A stretch of DNA of 64,000 bases, from contig JABHWZ010000002.1 in the NCBI GenBank assembly GCA_018657525.1, positions 84,590 to 148,589 on the forward strand, given 5' to 3'. Origin of the DNA: an archaeon (GTDB lineage Archaea; Nanobdellota; Nanobdellia; Pacearchaeales; GW2011-AR1). How positions within the stretch are numbered: the first letter of the stretch is position 1; each line of letters opens with the position of its first letter. The translations under genes and the position numbers were made by a program. Below, one piece after another: positions 7,892 to 17,394 of this stretch. The notes under the pieces were generated by a model. The model made no database searches. It saw only the letters and a program-made list of their open reading frames with translations, and was not told the DNA's origin.

Positions 7892-8260
7892 TTACAACAT
7901 CCTCCTAATTAATTCATTAATTTTATCTTTGTGATTTCCTAAAACTCCTTTTTTAACTCCGAAATGTTTCTTTGAGTCAATTCCTCCTCGTGCTGGATGC
8001 AATCTAAAGAAAGGTTTTAGTTTTCCATCAACATCTTTTTTCCCTCGCTTTGCAACAAGTTCTTTGTAAGTAGCGTCGTCGATTTCTCCATAAGCAACAA
8101 AATCTCTCAATGTTTTAATCATTCCCATTTGTTCCTTTGAAGGTTTTTCTAAGATCACACAAACATATTTTCTTCTAAGTCGTAATCTATCTAGAGTTTC
8201 AGCTATATCTCTATTAATTCCAATCATTCCTTTAATTCGGATTACAGCTATTTTATTCAT
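7892..8260 (-). CDS. rpl30: 50S ribosomal protein uL30 (L7e)
   Basis: IAVIRIKG...TLDRLRLRRKY...GEI...INELIRRM is the archaeal L30 pattern. The position between S5 and L15 fits. Confidence 0.85.
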   Translation of the reverse strand: MNKIAVIRIKGMIGINRDIAETLDRLRLRRKYVCVILEKPSKEQMGMIKTLRDFVAYGEIDDATYKELVAKRGKKDVDGKLKPFFRLHPARGGIDSKKHFGVKKGVLGNHKDKINELIRRML

Positions 8261-9162
8261 TGTGCTCCCTCCACATTTGTTTTCTTTAAAGCATTAATAC
8301 AAGCTTTCGCTAAATTAAAAGTTGTCCTTTGCTGCCCATCTGTTCTACTATAGACATCTTTAATTCCTGCAAGTTTTAAAATTTTCTTTAATTCATTTGC
8401 AACAGCTAATCCAGTTCCCTGCGGAGCAGGTATCAAAGTAACTTTAACACTTCCAGATTTTCCAGTAACCTTAAATGGAACAGTATGTAATTCTGCACAA
8501 GCACAATCAAACGAAGCACAAGACCGTCCAATTTTCATAACATTCAGTTTTGCCTTTCTAATCCCTTTATCCCTCGCTGGCAAAGTTTCTTGAGACTTTC
8601 CAGATCCAATTCCAATGTGCCCATTTTCATCCCCAACTACTGCCATTGTAGAAAATGTAGGAACATTTCCTTCCTTAGTTTTTCTTTGAGTTTGTCTCCA
8701 CGCTCTTCTTTTTCCACCACCAAACTTTCCTTTAGCTTGTCCAATGGCAATTAAATCAGTTTTAACAATTAGCAAACAATCAATAATTTGCGGCTCTAAT
8801 ATTTTTTTATCTGCTTCTAAAATTTCATCAATACTTTTAACTTTCCCGTCCTTAACCTCTCTACCTAATTTTGTCTTTGGCTCCCATTCTGCAACAATCT
8901 CTTCCCGAGTTTTTTCATTTCTTCTTCTTCCTCTCCGCGGCCTTCCTTTCTTTTTATCTTCCTTATCCTTTTCTTCCATTTTAACAATCTTCTTTTCTTT
9001 CTCAGCTTTAGTAGATGGATCTTCTGCTTCTTTCTTAATTTCTTTTTCAATCATTTTTTCACTAACTGTTTCAGCATTCGCTGCTTTATCTAACGCTGTT
9101 TCTTCTGAAAGAGCGCCTTGCGCTTCAACAGTTTTTTTTACTTCTTCGTCTATTTTTGCCAT
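8257..9162 (-). CDS. rps5: 30S ribosomal protein uS5 with an N-terminal Lys/Glu-rich extension of about 95 aa
   Basis: The core FSTMAVVGDENGHIGIGSGKSQE...PAPQGTGLVA is uS5. The ATG at 9162 lies 1 nt after the rpl18 stop; the track start at 9198 would overlap rpl18. Confidence 0.9.
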   Translation of the reverse strand: MAKIDEEVKKTVEAQGALSEETALDKAANAETVSEKMIEKEIKKEAEDPSTKAEKEKKIVKMEEKDKEDKKKGRPRRGRRRNEKTREEIVAEWEPKTKLGREVKDGKVKSIDEILEADKKILEPQIIDCLLIVKTDLIAIGQAKGKFGGGKRRAWRQTQRKTKEGNVPTFSTMAVVGDENGHIGIGSGKSQETLPARDKGIRKAKLNVMKIGRSCASFDCACAELHTVPFKVTGKSGSVKVTLIPAPQGTGLAVANELKKILKLAGIKDVYSRTDGQQRTTFNLAKACINALKKTNVEGAQ

Positions 9163-9163
9163 T

Positions 9164-9664
9164 TTATTTACTTCCCTCAATCTTAGATTTAATTTCACTA
9201 AATGTTTTTGAAAAATCTTCTTTTAAGTTTTTCCCTTCAATTCTTTCCTGTTCTGGAAACGCTTCTTCCTTACATTGAATTTCTAATCCTGAATCAATAA
9301 GTCCTTTAATAAAAGAATAAACTTTTGTCTTGTAACTTGTTTTTTGCATTCCTAAATCCACAATCGGCGTTTCTAATTTCTTGTCTTGAATTTTTTTACC
9401 CATCAAATATCCAGTTAAATACGACGCTGGAATTGACTTTAAACTTCCTTTTGATTTTTCAGGCCACCCGCATTTTAACAACTCTTTTGAATTAAGAGTC
9501 ATTACTATTTTATCTTGAGCAGCTTCGCTTGTAACATATTGCGCAAGAGCAAACTTGTTTGATTTTCTAAAAACTAATCTCGGTTTCCCCCCCTTCAACA
9601 ATTTAAGTCTAACTAAATAATTCGTCTTCCCTTCTCTCCTTCTTCGTTTTGCTATTCTTTTCAT
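9164..9664 (-). CDS. rpl18: 50S ribosomal protein uL18 (L5e)
   Basis: KRRRREGKTNYLVRLKLLKGGKPRLVFRKSNK is the uL18 N-terminus. The ATG at 9664 forms an ATGA overlap with the upstream ORF. Confidence 0.9.
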   Translation of the reverse strand: MKRIAKRRRREGKTNYLVRLKLLKGGKPRLVFRKSNKFALAQYVTSEAAQDKIVMTLNSKELLKCGWPEKSKGSLKSIPASYLTGYLMGKKIQDKKLETPIVDLGMQKTSYKTKVYSFIKGLIDSGLEIQCKEEAFPEQERIEGKNLKEDFSKTFSEIKSKIEGSK

Positions 9665-9981
9665 TTTCTTAATCCCTCCCATATTTTTTGTAAATCTCTA
9701 TATCCTCGACATTTTTTTGTAAAGACTGGTTGAGCGGTTCTGTTTGTTCCAGGCAAAAAAAGACCTTCTTTATCAATTTCTGAAACTTCTCCTTTGTAAA
9801 TATCAAAACTGAAGACATCATCTCCCACCAAGTTTGATCTAGTTAAAACTAATTGACCTTCTTTAGGAGCATTCCCAAAGAAAAATTTTCTAAGTTCAGG
9901 ATTTCTTTCAACTCTCCCCATAAAACCTATATAATAATAATCTACTGAAGTATCATATACTCTCCCGACTTCAGCATTCAT
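9661..9981 (-). CDS. hypothetical protein (106 aa) intercalated between rpl19e and rpl18
   Basis: The ORF fills the junction exactly, with ATGA overlaps at both ends. It has no r-protein similarity and carries the SD GGGAGGG for rpl18 in its last codons. Confidence 0.65.
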   Translation of the reverse strand: MNAEVGRVYDTSVDYYYIGFMGRVERNPELRKFFFGNAPKEGQLVLTRSNLVGDDVFSFDIYKGEVSEIDKEGLFLPGTNRTAQPVFTKKCRGYRDLQKIWEGLRK

Positions 9982-11956: not shown

Positions 11957-12313
11957 TTATTCTTGACCTCCTCTACTCATTTGAGTTTTTCTTGAAAGGA
12001 TATCTGCCCCCATTCTTTCATATTGTTCTTGCGGGATACCATATTTGCTTTTAGCCAGAGTTATTGCTTCATCCAATTCTCTTAATTTTCCCCTAAGCTT
12101 TGAACGATCATAACCTACTAGGTAATCTTCTAATTCTGATAGATATTTTATTTTTCCTGGTAAACTCCATCCACTAACTGTTTCTCCATTTAAATGCTCG
12201 AGTGCTTGAGTAATTACTAAGTCCTTCTGTCCGCTTAAATCTTTTGCGGTATTTGTCAATGCTGCTATGAACCTTCTATCTAATTCACTTAATTGTTTCG
12301 TTTCAGTTGTCAT
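11957..12313 (-). CDS. hypothetical protein (118 aa) intercalated between rps14 and rps8
   Basis: There are 1-nt gaps on both sides. The last codons AGA GGA GGT CAA GAA provide the SD GGAGGT for rps8. Confidence 0.65.
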   Translation of the reverse strand: MTTETKQLSELDRRFIAALTNTAKDLSGQKDLVITQALEHLNGETVSGWSLPGKIKYLSELEDYLVGYDRSKLRGKLRELDEAITLAKSKYGIPQEQYERMGADILSRKTQMSRGGQE

Positions 12314-12314
12314 T

Positions 12315-12545
12315 TTAACTATATTTTGTAAAGCCGATTTCTACTGCTAACTTTCGAAAACAGTGTCGACATAAATTTAATCCGTATGAGTTTACTCTTG
12401 CACCAAACCGACCGCAGTTCTCGCATTTTTGCGCAGCAACTCCAAACTTTCTGTCCCTTGGTTTATTATGTTTCAAAAACTTTGCTTTTATTGCTGGTTT
12501 ATTATCCAACTGCGTCATTACTTTTTTCCAATCGCTTGCTGTCAT
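12315..12545 (-). CDS. rps14: 30S ribosomal protein uS14 (zinc-binding type) with an N-terminal extension
   Basis: CENCGRFGARVNSYGLNLCRHCFR is the C-x2-C...C-x2-C uS14 core. Confidence 0.85.
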   Translation of the reverse strand: MTASDWKKVMTQLDNKPAIKAKFLKHNKPRDRKFGVAAQKCENCGRFGARVNSYGLNLCRHCFRKLAVEIGFTKYS

Positions 12546-12880
12546 TTTACTAATCTTGCCTCCCCATATTTTTTTATCAATTTTCTCCCTTCAAAAGTTT
12601 CAGAGTCAAATCTTTCTATTATAATACCCTCTTGATAATTATCTATCGCGAACCTTCCAGCGTAAGCAATTACTTCTTCAATAGGCACCATCCATTGTGT
12701 CCAATTCCTTCCACAAATCCCTTTATCTCCCAATAAAATCATTGTTCCTTCTTCATCCCTTTCTAACAACATAGCATCAAACCTTCCGTCGATGTAATCT
12801 CCTTGATCTAGTACTGGGAAGACGTCCCCGACTTGTAAATTTTTTACTTGTTCCATATTTTCTAATGTTTCATATTTCAT
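12542..12880 (-). CDS. hypothetical acidic protein (112 aa) intercalated between rpl5 and rps14
   Basis: ATGA overlaps at both ends. The SD GGGGAGG for rps14 sits in its last codons. Confidence 0.65.
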   Translation of the reverse strand: MKYETLENMEQVKNLQVGDVFPVLDQGDYIDGRFDAMLLERDEEGTMILLGDKGICGRNWTQWMVPIEEVIAYAGRFAIDNYQEGIIIERFDSETFEGRKLIKKYGEARLVK

Positions 12881-13408: not shown

Positions 13409-14059
13409 TTATTCTATTACAATTACCTGTTTATTTAATACTTTGATTGACTTGTCGCCTTCTGAAATTTCTACTGCTTTTCTTTCCTTATCTAGAACTT
13501 TGATAACTCCTTTTTCTCCTGCGTGCTTTCCTTGGAAAACAAGTACCTTTGATTTTTCTTTCAGAGGCAAACATTTTTCTATTTTTTTATCTTTTAAATT
13601 AATCAAAACAGAATCTCCAATATCACATTTAACCTCTGAAATAAAGTTTTTACCGTCGATTAAATTTATCTGAGTTTTTTTACCTTTCAATGTTTTTTTG
13701 TTAATTACTTTTGAAACTTTTTTCCCTGCTTCAGTTGCTTTAATCTCAACCAATTCAAATTTACCTTTGTTAGATAATTCTAATCTATAATGTTTTTTAG
13801 AAGGCACCAAACTTAAAGTATCCAATAAAACTAGTGCATTTTTATCATCTCTAACTTCTTTATTATTTCTCAAAATTAATCTTTCATTAATTGCCTTCTT
13901 AACTTCTTTTCGAGTAGCTGCAACTTTTAAAATATCCCTCAGCACAACCAGTATCGGTAAACCTAAATGTTTCTCAAAGTTAGGACAAACTACATACGCT
14001 GTTCCCTTCTTTGGAATCGGCCAGTTCTTGGGTATTGTTTGTCTCTTTAAATATGCCAT
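13409..14059 (-). CDS. rps4e: 30S ribosomal protein eS4
   Basis: MAYLKRQTIPKNWPIPKKGTAYVV... is the S4e N-terminus, followed by a KOW-like C-terminal part. Confidence 0.9.
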   Translation of the reverse strand: MAYLKRQTIPKNWPIPKKGTAYVVCPNFEKHLGLPILVVLRDILKVAATRKEVKKAINERLILRNNKEVRDDKNALVLLDTLSLVPSKKHYRLELSNKGKFELVEIKATEAGKKVSKVINKKTLKGKKTQINLIDGKNFISEVKCDIGDSVLINLKDKKIEKCLPLKEKSKVLVFQGKHAGEKGVIKVLDKERKAVEISEGDKSIKVLNKQVIVIE

Positions 14060-14407
14060 TTACAATCCTGCCTCCGTTAGTTTTGGATCTAATTTTTCAT
14101 ATTCTGCGCTTCCTTCAAGAAAGCTTCCATTTAAGATATTTTGTCCCATCCAAGAATCCTCTTTATATTCTAAAACGCTAATACTTTTCGGATAAGCAGG
14201 TATAATCCCTCCCAATATTTCAAGACTCCCTGTTGCAGGTCTTCTGACAAGGGTATATAATTTTTTCTCCTCTAAATCAACCTTTGCAACTAATTCGCGT
14301 GACGCACATGGCTTTAATAAAACATCTTTAATCATTATATCATGTAGAGTTCTATCTAAAGAATCCCTCCATGGGTCTATTATTAATTCATGCCCGTTTC
14401 GTATCAT
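14060..14407 (-). CDS. hypothetical protein (115 aa) intercalated between rpl24 and rps4e
   Basis: ATGA overlap with the rpl24 stop and 0-nt gap to the rps4e ATG. The SD GGAGG for rps4e sits in its last codons. Confidence 0.65.
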   Translation of the reverse strand: MIRNGHELIIDPWRDSLDRTLHDIMIKDVLLKPCASRELVAKVDLEEKKLYTLVRRPATGSLEILGGIIPAYPKSISVLEYKEDSWMGQNILNGSFLEGSAEYEKLDPKLTEAGL

Positions 14408-14859
14408 TTTTTCTCCTTGTTTGTTTTAGTTTTTGGATCTATTTTTTTCTCTACTTTTTCTTTCTTCTTTGTCTTTTTAGTTGTTTCTGTTGCAGTCTTT
14501 TTTGTCTTTGCGGTTCTATCTACCATCGAAACAATTTGTAAATTTGACGGTTGCATTTTAATTACAACTTTTGAGCCATCTTGTTTCTTCGCTTGAATTC
14601 CCTCAATTGTAACTTTGCCCTGCTTTGTAAAAACCTGCAAAATTTTCCCTTCTTTACCCTTGAATTTTCCACGCATAATTTTAACTTTGTCCTCTTTTCT
14701 TATTACAACATTTCTTGCTCCAACTTTCTTTCTTAAATCTTTAGCTAAATTTACTCCAAGAAGTTTTCTCTTAATATGAATCGGAGCGTTCGCTCTAAAT
14801 TTCCTCTGCTTCCGAGGCTGTTTACTTGCTTTCCACGCTGTTGAAAATTCTTTTTTCAT
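14404..14859 (-). CDS. rpl24: 50S ribosomal protein uL24 with a Lys/Thr-rich C-terminal extension
   Basis: KQPRKQRK...IRKEDKVKIMRGKFKGKEGKI is the KOW motif. The ATG at 14859 lies 1 nt after the rpl14 stop. Confidence 0.85.
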   Translation of the reverse strand: MKKEFSTAWKASKQPRKQRKFRANAPIHIKRKLLGVNLAKDLRKKVGARNVVIRKEDKVKIMRGKFKGKEGKILQVFTKQGKVTIEGIQAKKQDGSKVVIKMQPSNLQIVSMVDRTAKTKKTATETTKKTKKKEKVEKKIDPKTKTNKEKK

Positions 14860-14860
14860 T

Positions 14861-15262
14861 TTAATAAACCACTGAAGCGATTTTTGCAACTTGCGGCCAT
14901 CGCTCTAGAACCTCCCTTGCAATTGGTCCTTTAATCTGAGTTCCTTTTGGATTGCCTTTTTCATCTTTCAAAATAGCAACTGCATTATCTTCAAATGCCA
15001 CTCGCTCTCCGCTGTTTCTTCTCCATGATTTTTTCTGTCGAATTATTACTGCGTCAAAAACTTTCCCTTTCATGTCAGGCACGCCCTTCCGGATTGAAAC
15101 CTTTACCCAATCTGCAATTTTAGCACTTACCTGTTTAGATTTTTTAGCTTTAGCCTTTTTAACTGAAACAATTTTAACCATCTTCGCCCCACTATTATCT
15201 GCCGCGGGCATAATTGCACCGAGGTTAAAAGCTGAAGTTGTTCGCGCGCTTATTGCTTTCAT
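14861..15262 (-). CDS. rpl14: 50S ribosomal protein uL14
   Basis: ADNSGAKMVKIVSV...VFDAVIIRQKK..RR..G..V.FEDNA is the uL14 pattern. Confidence 0.95.
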   Translation of the reverse strand: MKAISARTTSAFNLGAIMPAADNSGAKMVKIVSVKKAKAKKSKQVSAKIADWVKVSIRKGVPDMKGKVFDAVIIRQKKSWRRNSGERVAFEDNAVAILKDEKGNPKGTQIKGPIAREVLERWPQVAKIASVVY

Positions 15263-15537
15263 TTTACATCCTCCCCTAATAATCCCTCAACTCTTAAATG
15301 ATTCCATGCTCTACTTCTTCTAATTTCTGCACTTTCACATCCTCCAATGCACCCACATCCTATTTGATATTCTCTAATGGTCACTTTTTCTCCATCCGAG
15401 TAAGCAAATATATTTGTTCCACATTGAGGATTTTGGCATCCAAATAAAACTCCTTTTTGCCCACTCACTAAAATATTCTGTGGGACATATGGATTAGATT
15501 CAAACCTGTGAATATCTTGAGGCCTTATTGCTTTCAT
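15259..15537 (-). CDS. hypothetical Cys-rich protein (92 aa) intercalated between rps17 and rpl14
   Basis: ATGA overlaps at both ends. Its first 14 nt are identical to the rpl14 start (MKAI). CQNPQCG...CGCIGGC is a possible metal site. The SD GGGGAGGA for rpl14 sits in its last codons. Confidence 0.65.
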   Translation of the reverse strand: MKAIRPQDIHRFESNPYVPQNILVSGQKGVLFGCQNPQCGTNIFAYSDGEKVTIREYQIGCGCIGGCESAEIRRSRAWNHLRVEGLLGEDVK

Positions 15538-15971
15538 TTTTTCTCTTCTCCAGATTTATCTTCTTTATTCAGTGTTTCACGATGCTCATGTGAAATGGAT
15601 TTAATAAACACAAAATGGATAATCTTACTCAAAGGTCGGCACTCTTGAATCTGAACTAAGTCCCCAATATTTACTGACGCTTCTAAGCATATTGGCAATC
15701 TAGCATGAAGTTTGGTTCTTGATTTAGTATATCTTTCATATTTTCTTACGTAAACTGTTCTTTCAAGTTCAATTACAATTCTTTTTTTAAATTTCTTGGT
15801 AACTGTTCCTTCAAAGATTCGCCCATGAGTTTTTAATTTTCCATGAATATTACAATCTATATCTTTGCATTCTTTCAGAGTCTCTGCTACTTTTGCTCCC
15901 TTCCGTGCTTCGCGATGCCTATGCGCAATGGCGCTTTCTGTTTTTTTCTTTGTCATTTTCTTTTCTGTCAT
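15534..15971 (-). CDS. rps17: 30S ribosomal protein uS17 with terminal extensions
   Basis: GRIFEGTVTKKFKKRIVIELERTVYVRKYERY...IGDLVQIQECRPLSK is uS17. The ATG at 15971 has AGGTGA 13 nt upstream; the alternative ATG at 16040 would overlap sui1 by 11 nt. Confidence 0.85.
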   Translation of the reverse strand: MTEKKMTKKKTESAIAHRHREARKGAKVAETLKECKDIDCNIHGKLKTHGRIFEGTVTKKFKKRIVIELERTVYVRKYERYTKSRTKLHARLPICLEASVNIGDLVQIQECRPLSKIIHFVFIKSISHEHRETLNKEDKSGEEKK

Positions 15972-16029
15972 TTTTGTGTATGTCACCTTTTTTTCCGGGC
16001 CACCTCGAAGAGGTTCTCGTGACCTTTGG

Positions 16030-16332
16030 TTATTCTTCATCTACGGAATCTTCATCAAATCCCATCTTTCCTAAAAGAGGTTTTATTCTCTTTCGATGAT
16101 CTCCTTGGAGTTCAATTCTGCCATCTTTGTAAGTCCCTCCACAAGCTAACTCATTTTTCAGAGCCTTTGCGGTTTTCTTTACATCGACGCTGTTGTCGAA
16201 CCCACTAACCACAGTAACAATCTTTCCGTACCTTTTCTTGTCGGTTGTTACCTTTATTCTTTGTGAACTTTTTACTATCTGCTCACACACACATGCTTGC
16301 TCAGGCAAGCCACATTTTGGACATATTTCCAT
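16030..16332 (-). CDS. sui1: translation initiation factor aIF1 / SUI1
   Basis: CPKCGLPEQACVCE zinc knuckle plus the SUI1 core (KRYGKIVTVVSGF...LKNELACGGTYKDGRIELQGDHR). Confidence 0.9.
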   Translation of the reverse strand: MEICPKCGLPEQACVCEQIVKSSQRIKVTTDKKRYGKIVTVVSGFDNSVDVKKTAKALKNELACGGTYKDGRIELQGDHRKRIKPLLGKMGFDEDSVDEE

Positions 16333-16334
16333 AT

Positions 16335-16520
16335 TTATTGTGTCCCAACTCCAGTTTTATTAGAGGTGAGTATTCTCGCAATTATTTTTCTGATTTCTTT
16401 GTTTTTAGTACTTCCTGTTTTAGTCGAGCTTGACTTTGATTTTATTAATTCCATTTTCAACTCTTTAATCTTTTTTTCCTTATCTTTCTCGCTTAGTTTT
16501 TGTACTTCTTTGAATTTCAT
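16335..16520 (-). CDS. rpl29: 50S ribosomal protein uL29
   Basis: KEVQKLSEKDKEKKIKELKMELIK...IRKIIARILT is the uL29 pattern. Confidence 0.85.
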   Translation of the reverse strand: MKFKEVQKLSEKDKEKKIKELKMELIKSKSSSTKTGSTKNKEIRKIIARILTSNKTGVGTQ

Positions 16521-16690
16521 TTTATTTCTCCTTTCATTTCTTTTTCTAACTTTGCCATTTTTAGTTGATGAGTTTTAAGGCTCTCTTCTAAAACCTTTCT
16601 ACCTCCAGAAACAGGTATTTCTCCTAAATACTTTTGACATGTCGTTATTGCATGTTTACATTGTGTATATTCTTCTTGATGGTCTTTCAT
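16517..16690 (-). CDS. hypothetical protein (57 aa, MKDHQEEYTQCKHAITTCQKYLGEIPVSGGRKVLEESLKTHQLKMAKLEKEMKGEIK) intercalated between rps3 and rpl29
   Basis: Not in the ORF track (under 60 aa). I translated it by hand: 58 codons, with ATGA overlaps to both the rps3 stop and the rpl29 start. The SD AAGGAG for rpl29 sits in its last codons. Confidence 0.55.
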   Translation of the reverse strand: MKDHQEEYTQCKHAITTCQKYLGEIPVSGGRKVLEESLKTHQLKMAKLEKEMKGEIK

Positions 16691-17394
16691 TTCTTTGCCT
16701 CCTCGACTTTTTTAGTTGCTTTCTTTCTTGTGCTCTTCTTTTTCTTAGGTTTTAAACTTACATCTTTTAGTTTCATATTTTCTTTTAACTTATTAATCAT
16801 GGCCTCATCAATAACTACTTTATCTGTCAGTTTTACATAAGGGGATAAAATTGCAACTTTAATTCCTACAACTCCTGGTTTAGTCATCGCAACTGCTTGC
16901 GCCCTATCTACTAACTTTGCACTCTCTCCCGCTTTTTTCAAATATCCCTGAGCAAATCTCCATGTTTTTGCCCTAGTGCTCGGAAGCTTTCCACTCAATT
17001 TAAGTTCTGCACCCAAGGCTCCAGCTTTCATTATTGTCTCCAATGCTCTATAAGCTATAACTTTAAATTTCAAAGGTCCAACTCTTTCCAGACCCAACGC
17101 AATTTCATCCGCCATTAATTGTGCATCAAGCTCAGGCTCAGTTATCTCCTTTATTTCCACATGAGGATTAGCTAATTTGAATTCCTTTTTCAAAAATTCA
17201 GTTAATTCTCCAATTCTCTCACCCTTTCTACCAATAACTAATCCAGGTTTATGCGTCGATACAATAATTTTTTCACCAACCGGAGTGTATTCAATTTCAA
17301 CTTTGCTGGCCTTACCCTTTCCAAGCGATGTTTTAACATATTCTTTAACTGCGAATTCTTCTTTTTTCAAAGCTACTGATTTTCTTTCTTCCAT
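16687..17394 (-). CDS. rps3: 30S ribosomal protein uS3 with a Lys-rich C-terminal tail
   Basis: KH domain (VIGRKGERIGELTEFLKKEF) plus the uS3 C-terminal domain. Confidence 0.95.
   Translation of the reverse strand: MEERKSVALKKEEFAVKEYVKTSLGKGKASKVEIEYTPVGEKIIVSTHKPGLVIGRKGERIGELTEFLKKEFKLANPHVEIKEITEPELDAQLMADEIALGLERVGPLKFKVIAYRALETIMKAGALGAELKLSGKLPSTRAKTWRFAQGYLKKAGESAKLVDRAQAVAMTKPGVVGIKVAILSPYVKLTDKVVIDEAMINKLKENMKLKDVSLKPKKKKSTRKKATKKVEEAKK

Follow-up and report, generated by a model that had tools for sequence, protein, structure and literature searches.

Archaeal S10/spc ribosomal protein clusters carry a number of extra open reading frames (ORFs), namely RNP1, SUI1, S4e, L32e and L19e, which were first seen as ORFa-e in Methanococcus vannielii. 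Target-site duplications are 2-14 bp long for insertion sequence (IS) elements and 14-15 bp for casposons. The canonical archaeal S10/spc cluster has been described, and the adjacency of uS17 and uL14 is part of a 14-gene core that is conserved in Bacteria and Archaea (PMC10833476). In Haloferax volcanii, ATGA overlaps make translation of the downstream gene absolutely dependent on that of the upstream gene, via termination-reinitiation (Huber et al. 2019, PMC6728339). The locus analyzed here is the S10-spc ribosomal protein cluster of an AT-rich DPANN archaeon, which is encoded on the minus strand of a 64-kb stretch of contig JABHWZ010000002.1 (assembly GCA_018657525.1); this whole stretch is referred to as the window, and all positions are counted from its first letter. 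Between rps17 and rpl14, it contains a 92-codon reading frame, ORF92, which begins with an exact 17-nt copy of the rpl14 start. With a probability of roughly 65%, the ancestral S17/L14 junction was duplicated when the ORF-bearing segment arrived, and ORF92 uses the copy of the L14 initiation region. The features on which this reading is based are the following:

15524-15540, minus strand: upstream repeat copy; the S17 stop (TGA) overlaps the ORF92 start (ATGA), and the copy covers ORF92 codons 1-4 plus 2 nt
15266-15523, minus strand: unique segment of 258 nt, spanning ORF92 from base 3 of codon 5 to base 1 of codon 91; the downstream repeat copy holds what remains of codons 91-92 and the stop
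15249-15265, minus strand: downstream repeat copy; the ORF92 stop (TGA) overlaps the L14 start (ATGA), and the copy covers L14 codons 1-4 plus 2 nt
15259-15537, minus strand: ORF92, 92 codons plus stop, a lineage-restricted (orphan) cistron between S17 and L14
15270-15274, minus strand: GGAGG, a Shine-Dalgarno-like motif within the 3' end of ORF92, which precedes the L14 ATG by 7 nt (direct reading)
15534-16040, minus strand: rps17 (uS17), Pfam PF00366, E 1.6e-17
14861-15262, minus strand: rpl14 (uL14), intact, 133 aa, Pfam PF00238, E 3e-33

The extra ORFs of archaeal S10/spc clusters resemble ORF92 in being non-universal and presumably co-transcribed cistrons between universal ribosomal protein genes. 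Their conservation extends over Archaea and Eukarya, and most of their products are basic proteins of the ribosome or of RNA processing, whereas ORF92 is confined to a single species-level lineage, encodes a near-neutral product and sits in the otherwise universal uS17-uL14 junction. ORF92 does not qualify as one of the conserved residents of the operon (S4e, L32e, L19e, RNP1, SUI1), having no Pfam or NCBIfam match. The coupled gene pairs of H. volcanii (PMC6728339) are similar in that both ORF92 junctions are 4-nt ATGA overlaps with GGAG or GGAGG in the 3' end of the upstream gene; unlike in these pairs, the coupling site is duplicated here, and a foreign cistron appears to be threaded into the presumably coupled pair.

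The sequence AAAATGAAAGCAATAAG forms a perfect (17/17) direct repeat on the minus strand, with copies at 15249-15265 and 15524-15540, and a pattern search found just these two matches across the 64 kb, even when two mismatches were allowed. Each copy consists of the 3 nt before the ATG, codons 1-4 (MKAI) and 2 nt of codon 5; the ORF92 protein begins MKAIR and the L14 protein MKAIS. Sequence reading and translations thus bear out the first-pass annotation, which had reported the 17/17 match and both protein starts from the letters of the window. Identity breaks off sharply at both ends of the repeat: in the following 13 nt downstream, 5/13 positions match, and the 6/11 matches upstream are purine on purine, which is at noise level. 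An extension of the repeat to 28 nt (82%) proposed by a repeat finder was rejected because it reflects the purine-tract likeness of two Shine-Dalgarno-like regions. On its right flank, the downstream copy leads into the conserved N-terminal sequence of L14. The locus is built identically in no fewer than 24 contigs of separate assemblies (NCBI, JGI, ENA, Logan) and in 4 NCBI metagenome-assembled genomes (MAGs; one of them is GCA_018653175.1, contig JABIAR010000001), and the repeat is therefore not an assembly artefact.

The two 17-mers are spaced by 275 nt (91 codons plus 2 nt), such that the upstream frame ends exactly in the ATGA of the second copy, and the repeat begins at the junction. Both features would fit a tandem duplication in which the first 275 nt of rpl14 were copied and the upstream partial copy then diverged into a new ORF. 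This scenario is very improbable and effectively refuted, as the insert retains no residual similarity to rpl14: the Smith-Waterman score of the two is 15, compared to 14 +/- 2.1 for shuffled sequences, and the proteins are no more alike. Moreover, a perfect 17-mer with an abrupt end beside fully randomised sequence is unlike a decaying duplication.

The chance level of the repeat was gauged empirically because gene starts in this genome share context. When the 113 gene-like starts of the window were compared pairwise, 4 of the 6328 pairs, the ORF92/L14 pair among them, had exact matches of 15 nt or more running through the ATG (18, 17, 16 and 15 nt), which corresponds to a chance of ~3-5e-4 per pair. 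When the starts of other ribosomal genes were compared with the L14 start from -3 to +14, the mean identity was 8.6/17 and the maximum 15/17 in 817 comparisons, 3.5% of which reached 13/17 or more and none 17. Among the 31 non-redundant S17/L14 loci that are occupied by an insert, a copy of at least 14 nt of the own L14 start upstream is found in the window only. The repeat is thus real and clearly beyond chance, yet less extreme than the naive estimate of 4^-17 would suggest.

A coincidental or convergent origin has to be weighed against these numbers: ORF92 could be of independent origin, and the two starts could be alike because reinitiation prefers AAA-ATG-AAA followed by A-rich, unstructured codons. 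MK starts are indeed found in 20% of the gene-like ORFs here, 9 of 6328 unrelated start pairs share exact runs of 14-18 nt, and the purine-rich upstream contexts are alike everywhere. A group of inserts in related genomes (family A; L082, L098 and L046) likewise starts MKAI or MKAF and matches the respective own L14 start at 12-13/17 positions; this lies within the null, and start borrowing by family A was rejected as anything beyond a hint. For ORF92, the identity of 17/17 lies above all 817 null comparisons, 11 of the 17 identical bases are downstream of the ATG, and the sequence that follows ATGAAA, GCAATAAG, is found in no other start of the window. The identity is furthermore with the immediately downstream gene, it lies exactly at the borders of the segment that relatives lack, and ORF92 has no other ATG. 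Coincidence is hence judged unlikely, and a common origin of the two 17-mers, with later conversion included, is considered decidedly probable.

The comparison with relatives is based on at least 160 loci, which were collected with L14 as anchor from MAGs labelled Pacearchaeota, Woesearchaeota or Nanoarchaeota and are denoted by three-digit numbers (L010 and the like); their L14 is 68-86% identical to that of the window among the matches listed. The L14 start reads exactly AAAATGAAAGCAATAAG in 21 of the 160 relatives, 11 of which have empty ATGA junctions where the S17 stop overlaps the L14 start, and the 14-mer ATGAAAGCAATAAG is the L14 start in 42. A second, upstream copy of the own L14 start is found in the genome of the window only. 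The window sequence across the S17 end and the ORF92 start, GGAGAAGAGAAAAAATGAAAGCAATAAG, agrees at every one of 28 nt with the uninterrupted S17/L14 junction of L010. In the 62 relatives with empty junctions, the 30 nt upstream of the ATG have on average 16.1 identities to the S17-end copy of the window versus 12.5 to the ORF92-end copy; the 30 nt downstream have 21.3 identities to the L14 copy versus 17.0 to the ORF92 copy. L164, the closest S17 relative among the matches listed, also has an empty ATGA junction, which reads AAAATGAAAGCAGTAAG. In view of the flank identities and the L010 and L164 junctions, the locus is composed of an ancestral left half, the repeat, new DNA, the repeat again and an ancestral right half. 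The first-pass annotation had proposed that the ancestral junction, including the first about five codons of rpl14, was duplicated when the insert arrived, and had suggested an alignment of the rps17-rpl14 junctions of related genomes; the single-copy junctions and the flank comparison now support this proposal, and the empty sites are compatible with a single-copy junction, the 17-mer being present in 11 of them and the match to L010 extending over 28 nt.

These observations could be explained in the following manner: The ancestral, single-copy junction would have been of the form ...GGAGAAGAGAAAAA-ATGA-AAGCAATAAG..., with the S17 stop overlapping the L14 start. A 258-nt ORF-bearing segment would then have inserted into the first codons of rpl14, duplicating 17 bp of the target, possibly by a duplication of the staggered-cut or microhomology type. 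The downstream repeat copy would have rebuilt a complete rpl14, and the upstream copy would have stayed on the 3' end of S17 and given ORF92 the L14 start codon, the ATGA overlap and its first four codons. The repeat contains the single in-frame ATG of ORF92, and just two GTG codons (24 and 52) are further candidate starts; the new frame thus relies on the start that it borrowed from L14. The suggestion of the first-pass annotation that the ORF borrowed the rpl14 initiation region is strengthened accordingly, given that the ATG of the repeat is its sole in-frame ATG and that the segment is open in its frame only. If correct, the locus records, to the nucleotide, the way in which a core cluster can take up a new cistron and remain intact: through a short duplication of the coupling site, the essential gene is restored and the newcomer is at the same time provided with a working start.

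Both junctions of ORF92 have the hallmarks of translational coupling. The ATGA overlaps are located at 15534-15537 (S17/ORF92) and 15259-15262 (ORF92/L14). A GGAG (15548-15551) in the 3' end of S17 precedes the ORF92 ATG by 10 nt, and the 3' end of ORF92, GGGGAGGATGTAAAATGA, supplies the GGAGG and the new ATGA overlap for L14; in relatives, GGAG or GGAGG is found in the 3' end of S17 at a like distance from the L14 start. Direct reading of the coding strand of the insert revealed no runs of five or more U, which could act as archaeal terminators. Ribosomes that terminate on S17 may thus reinitiate at the overlapping ATG of ORF92, and the GGAGG of ORF92 together with the second ATGA may pass them on to L14, keeping the essential downstream gene coupled. 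ORF92 would in this way ride on the promoter and the translational coupling of the ribosomal operon; it would be made at rates similar to those of ribosomal proteins, and expression of L14 would now depend on translation through ORF92.

By intrinsic measures, host-like codon usage and a single open frame, ORF92 appears to be a genuine coding sequence. Its codon log-odds are 0.33 in frame and -0.62 to -1.07 in the other five frames, compared to 0.42 +/- 0.16 for the long genes of the window and -0.90 +/- 0.33 (maximum -0.13) for off-frame windows. The GC contents at codon positions 1/2/3 are 0.47/0.42/0.21, as in the neighbouring genes, no compositional anomaly was found at ORF92, and the 258-nt segment is open in one of six frames, with 0 stops in the ORF92 frame versus 3-7 in each of the others. 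The predicted product has a mass of 10.3 kDa, a pI of 7.6 and 5 Cys (C34-x3-C38; C61-x-C63-x3-C67); it is without the basic RNA-binding composition of S17 and L14 (pI 10.0-10.5). It may thus be a small, near-neutral, Cys-rich and possibly metal-binding protein, and as for its role, our guess is that of a dispensable, highly expressed protein that is kept through its embedding in an essential coupled operon. The opposite view, that the segment is a non-coding spacer, a structured RNA or an assembly artefact and the ORF fortuitous, could draw on the lack of homologs and of a confident structure model: a single-sequence AF2 model, computed with no alignment, had a pLDDT of 36 and was unusable. 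This view is scarcely credible in light of a codon score within the range of real genes, a third-position GC content of 0.21, the distribution of stops and the recurrence of the arrangement in the 24 or more separately assembled contigs and the 4 NCBI MAGs. A structured RNA or Rfam element in particular was rejected, as no family matched in an Rfam scan of the 258-nt segment and its fold z-score of -0.63 is not unusual.

Searches for homologs of ORF92 in about 15 billion proteins returned only self matches, i.e. the identical protein, and one spurious match. The latter, P0002 (E 2.4e-9), is a 2399-aa RTX-type protein in which ten near-identical repeats inflate the summed score. No homolog was detected in a word-index search of 5.8 billion proteins, in an exhaustive HMMER search of 1.84 billion representatives or among the 160 relatives, and there was no match in Pfam, NCBIfam, PHROGs, PADLOC, the PDB sequences or viral contigs. 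Homing endonuclease motifs (HNH, GIY-YIG, LAGLIDADG) were likewise absent, with no Pfam or PHROG match at E <= 0.01. As a source of the 258 nt, blastn and tblastx comparisons with the rest of the window and the 160 loci gave noise only. As judged from these searches, ORF92 is an orphan, with a coding signature and no detectable homologs outside a narrow lineage.

A number of points weigh against an insertion that duplicated the junction. (i) Gene starts in this AT-rich genome share context and unrelated pairs reach runs of 15-18 nt; the probability of a coincidence is ~0.02-0.03 over all adjacent gene pairs of the window and ~1e-3 if just intercalated ORFs are tested against their downstream gene. 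(ii) The host-like codon usage of ORF92 alone does not point to a recent arrival. (iii) Most other ORFs at the S17/L14 junction of relatives have their own, unrelated starts, and most other inserts share runs of 4-11 nt only; neither start borrowing nor duplication is hence a general rule or signature. (iv) No second copy of the 258-nt segment was found in the 64-kb window, 162 related loci, viral contigs or protein databases, ORF92 has no Pfam, NCBIfam or PHROG match to a transposase or integrase, and the search for terminal inverted repeats yielded just an asymmetric 11/13 pair, which is at chance level. No known insertion machinery is implicated, given that transposase, convincing inverted repeats and a second copy are all missing. 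(v) No close sister lineage was found, the nearest relatives being ~72% identical in ribosomal proteins and the nearest S17 at most ~75% identical among the matches listed, which did not include the organism itself. (vi) Population variants that lack the insert, for which the first-pass annotation had proposed a search, were not found: all variants of the S17 cluster carry ORF92, the exact pattern predicted for an excision product (...GGAGAAGAGAAAAAAATGAAAGCAATAAGCGCGCGAAC...) had 0 matches in metagenome contigs, and the population is clonal, with contigs that are 99.97-100% identical over 3 kb and one single-nucleotide polymorphism in 3 kb. Because neither an empty-site sister nor such a variant was found, the insertion event is deduced rather than observed.

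The S17/L14 junction is a hotspot of small inserts in related genomes. In the 155 loci for which it could be classified, its configurations are distributed as follows:

68/155 loci: overlapping junction, essentially all ATGA
18/155 loci: gap of 0-20 nt
34/155 loci: gap of 21-149 nt
35/155 loci (~23%): insert of at least 150 nt

The occupants, counted over 31 non-redundant loci, fall into ~21 unrelated families of 56-131 codons, most of them with ATGA coupling on either side, and Pfam or PHROG matches are all but absent among them. L032 carries two families in tandem, and no boundary motif beyond ATGA is conserved among the inserts. Other junctions are occupied to different degrees: L14/L24 in 44/160 loci, more often than S17/L14, L24/S4e in 10/150, S3/L29 in 3/110 and L29/SUI1 never, with each of the other relatives having its own set of occupied junctions. 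Genomes that are 90-95% nt-identical in S17 and L14 differ in occupancy or occupant; L003 (105-codon ORF, 2187-2504) and L083 (~100-175), for example, are 95% identical in L14, and L083 has a 64-nt spacer that corresponds to the first ~60 nt of the ORF, with deletion endpoints at short GGAGAyAT..ATT repeats, which points to loss of the insert by microhomology-mediated deletion.

ORF92 thus seems to exemplify a broader turnover, not remarked on before, in which small non-ribosomal cistrons come and go at S10-spc junctions of Pacearchaeota/Woesearchaeota-type DPANN; a literature search found no description of intercalated ORFs in DPANN ribosomal operons. The novelty of ORF92 lies in the fact that an orphan gene, ATGA coupling and an insertion of the target-duplication type come together at a junction that is generally held to be invariant, and the wider hotspot is the more novel result compared to this single case. 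Supposedly frozen junctions are, in one large group of ultrasmall archaea, among the most dynamic for the gain, rapid divergence and loss of orphan genes. They may serve as a natural system for studying the birth and fixation of orphans, the limits that coupling sets to operon evolution, and the question whether new or selfish genes are nursed or sheltered by highly expressed operons. In phylogenomics, inserts of this kind have to be reckoned with in DPANN wherever annotation pipelines or marker-gene studies take ribosomal genes to be contiguous.

Two minor features of these junctions were noted. Many of the 21-149 nt spacers (e.g. L008, L011, L015, L031, L053) are ~46-66 nt long and end in ggagg-N5-7-tcaaATG, with no ATGA overlap; they may be a form of spacer peculiar to one clade or, as in L083, what is left of lost inserts. 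The ORFs at L14/L24 are a heterogeneous set of 61-217 aa, beginning directly at the stop codon of L14 (e.g. L006:2904-3167, L044:2904-3320, L084:2404-3057, L136:2404-3021), and by eye some of them look HAD-hydrolase-like or DUF523-like.

The rapid evolution of the inserts bears on the possibility that ORF92 is an old resident, i.e. an ancient, very fast-evolving cistron and diverged member of a family found in relatives, the 5' end of which was overwritten in a short-patch conversion by the L14 start, 275 nt distant, or is held identical by selection on the initiation region. The inserted ORFs evolve 3-8x faster non-synonymously than S17 and L14, with dN/dS of 0.3-0.9 compared to 0.05-0.26 for the flanks, and insert orthologs are down to 32-54% identity where L14 is at 83-95%. 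At the ~72% ribosomal-protein identity of the nearest relatives, homology would be undetectable; ORF92 could thus be an orphan without being brand new, and its codon usage is fully host-like. Conversion, however, requires prior homology, and the other inserts give no sign of a selective need for an L14-like start. The insert families are for the most part helical and K/E-rich, which sets them apart in composition from the near-neutral, Cys-rich ORF92 with its predicted beta strands, and BLASTP found no link between them and ORF92. The fate of a second repeat, in the related loci L092 and L089, argues in the same direction. The 127-codon ORF that L092 carries at S17/L14 is a different one; copies of a perfect 16-nt repeat, GGAGGAAGTAAAATGA, which comprises the last 4 S17 codons plus ATGA, lie on both sides of it, such that S17 and the inserted ORF both end in EEVK; the copies are located as follows:

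1605-1624 and 1985-2004 of L092: repeat copies flanking the inserted ORF; same positions in L089

In L089, the two copies differ at 3 positions. Such repeats hence decay rather than being maintained, which argues that the perfect repeat of the window is young rather than selected. Taken together, an old resident with a converted start is quite unlikely. Under the insertion with junction duplication, too, ORF92 would be a young or fast-evolving accessory cistron that is most likely dispensable.

Shared runs of 16 nt or more are not reached in any non-self comparison outside the window in 900 pairs, and the L092 repeat is independent of that of the window; such repeats therefore arise at the junction more than once. 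L092 also provides the second case for a comparison with transposable elements and casposons: the inserts are missing in relatives and bounded by perfect direct repeats of the target, of 17 nt in the window and 16 nt in L092. The 17 bp are longer than typical for IS elements and close to the casposon value; in contrast to such elements, no transposase or integrase, no terminal inverted repeat above chance and no other copy was found, and the 'element' is a single promoterless 258-nt ORF fragment.

The ribosomal operon of the window itself holds six extra cistrons, ORF92 and five others that are tightly packed, have gene-like codon scores and show junction repeats of at most 8 nt. These and their neighbours are:

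16687-17394, minus strand: S3
16517-16690, minus strand: ORF57, S3/L29 junction; no Pfam match
16335-16520, minus strand: L29
16030-16332, minus strand: SUI1
14404-14889, minus strand: L24
14060-14407, minus strand: ORF115, L24/S4e junction; no Pfam match
13409-14059, minus strand: S4e
12542-12880, minus strand: ORF112, L5/S14 junction; no Pfam match
11957-12313, minus strand: ORF118, S14/S8 junction; no Pfam match
9661-9981, minus strand: ORF106, L19e/L18 junction; no Pfam match

By the search of 5.8 billion proteins, ORF115 is an orphan as well. Homologs of ORF112 are the S17/L14 ORF of L003 (E 3e-15, 44% over 54 aa) and the truncated remnant of that ORF at L083:108-170; the ORF112 family is therefore found at two or more junctions in different genomes. 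A weaker similarity to the L24/S4e ORF of L052 (2899-3315) and L140 (20 residues, 50% identity) would add a third junction; viral relatives of the ORF112/L003 family were not found. In L089 and L092, the insert is 98% nt-identical compared to 86-94% for the S17 and L14 flanks (dS 0.04 versus 0.36-0.42), which suggests that it was recently exchanged.

Junction switching by the ORF112 family, the 98% identical insert of L089 and L092 and modular combinations such as that in L032 are hints at a more far-reaching possibility, as are the two independent perfect repeats of 16 and 17 nt (L092 and window), which overlap the same AAAATGA core. The inserts might be mobile, promoterless mini-cassettes that ride on operons: they would integrate at coupled stop/start junctions with target duplications of ~16-17 bp, spread between lineages and hop between junctions, exploiting the lethality of a polar disruption of the essential downstream gene, and ORF92 would be a fresh integration. 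The cases behind this proposal are few, and it is presently considered unlikely. In such a capacity, the inserts would resemble integron cassettes, which are likewise diverse, promoterless and mostly single-ORF units at one site behind a strong promoter, with variable occupancy and tandem combinations (as in L032); in contrast to integrons, neither an integrase in the operon nor any element resembling attI or attC could be detected, coupling would take the place of a cassette promoter, and the junction positions vary. The resemblance to orphan genes and de novo gene birth lies in the lack of homologs, the short ORF, the fast-evolving related cassettes and a start codon recruited from existing sequence; the differences are that the codon usage of ORF92 is already fully gene-like and that no non-coding precursor is identifiable.

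Further observations concern the ribosomal protein genes of the window. The S17 frame is open over 168 codons, with a K/E-rich N-terminal extension, and its start is uncertain: NCBI places it at 15956 (140 aa), and other pipelines call proteins of 145-168 aa. No gene for the RNase P subunit (RNP1/Rpp29) is present between SUI1 and S17, its site in most archaea. The S5 frame (8257-9198, minus strand) encodes 313 aa, with the S5 domains beginning at residue ~168, and overlaps the 3' end of L18 by 35 nt; the additional length represents either an N-terminal extension or an accessory segment fused in frame, and S5 is also long in L164 and L165 (288 and 318 aa).

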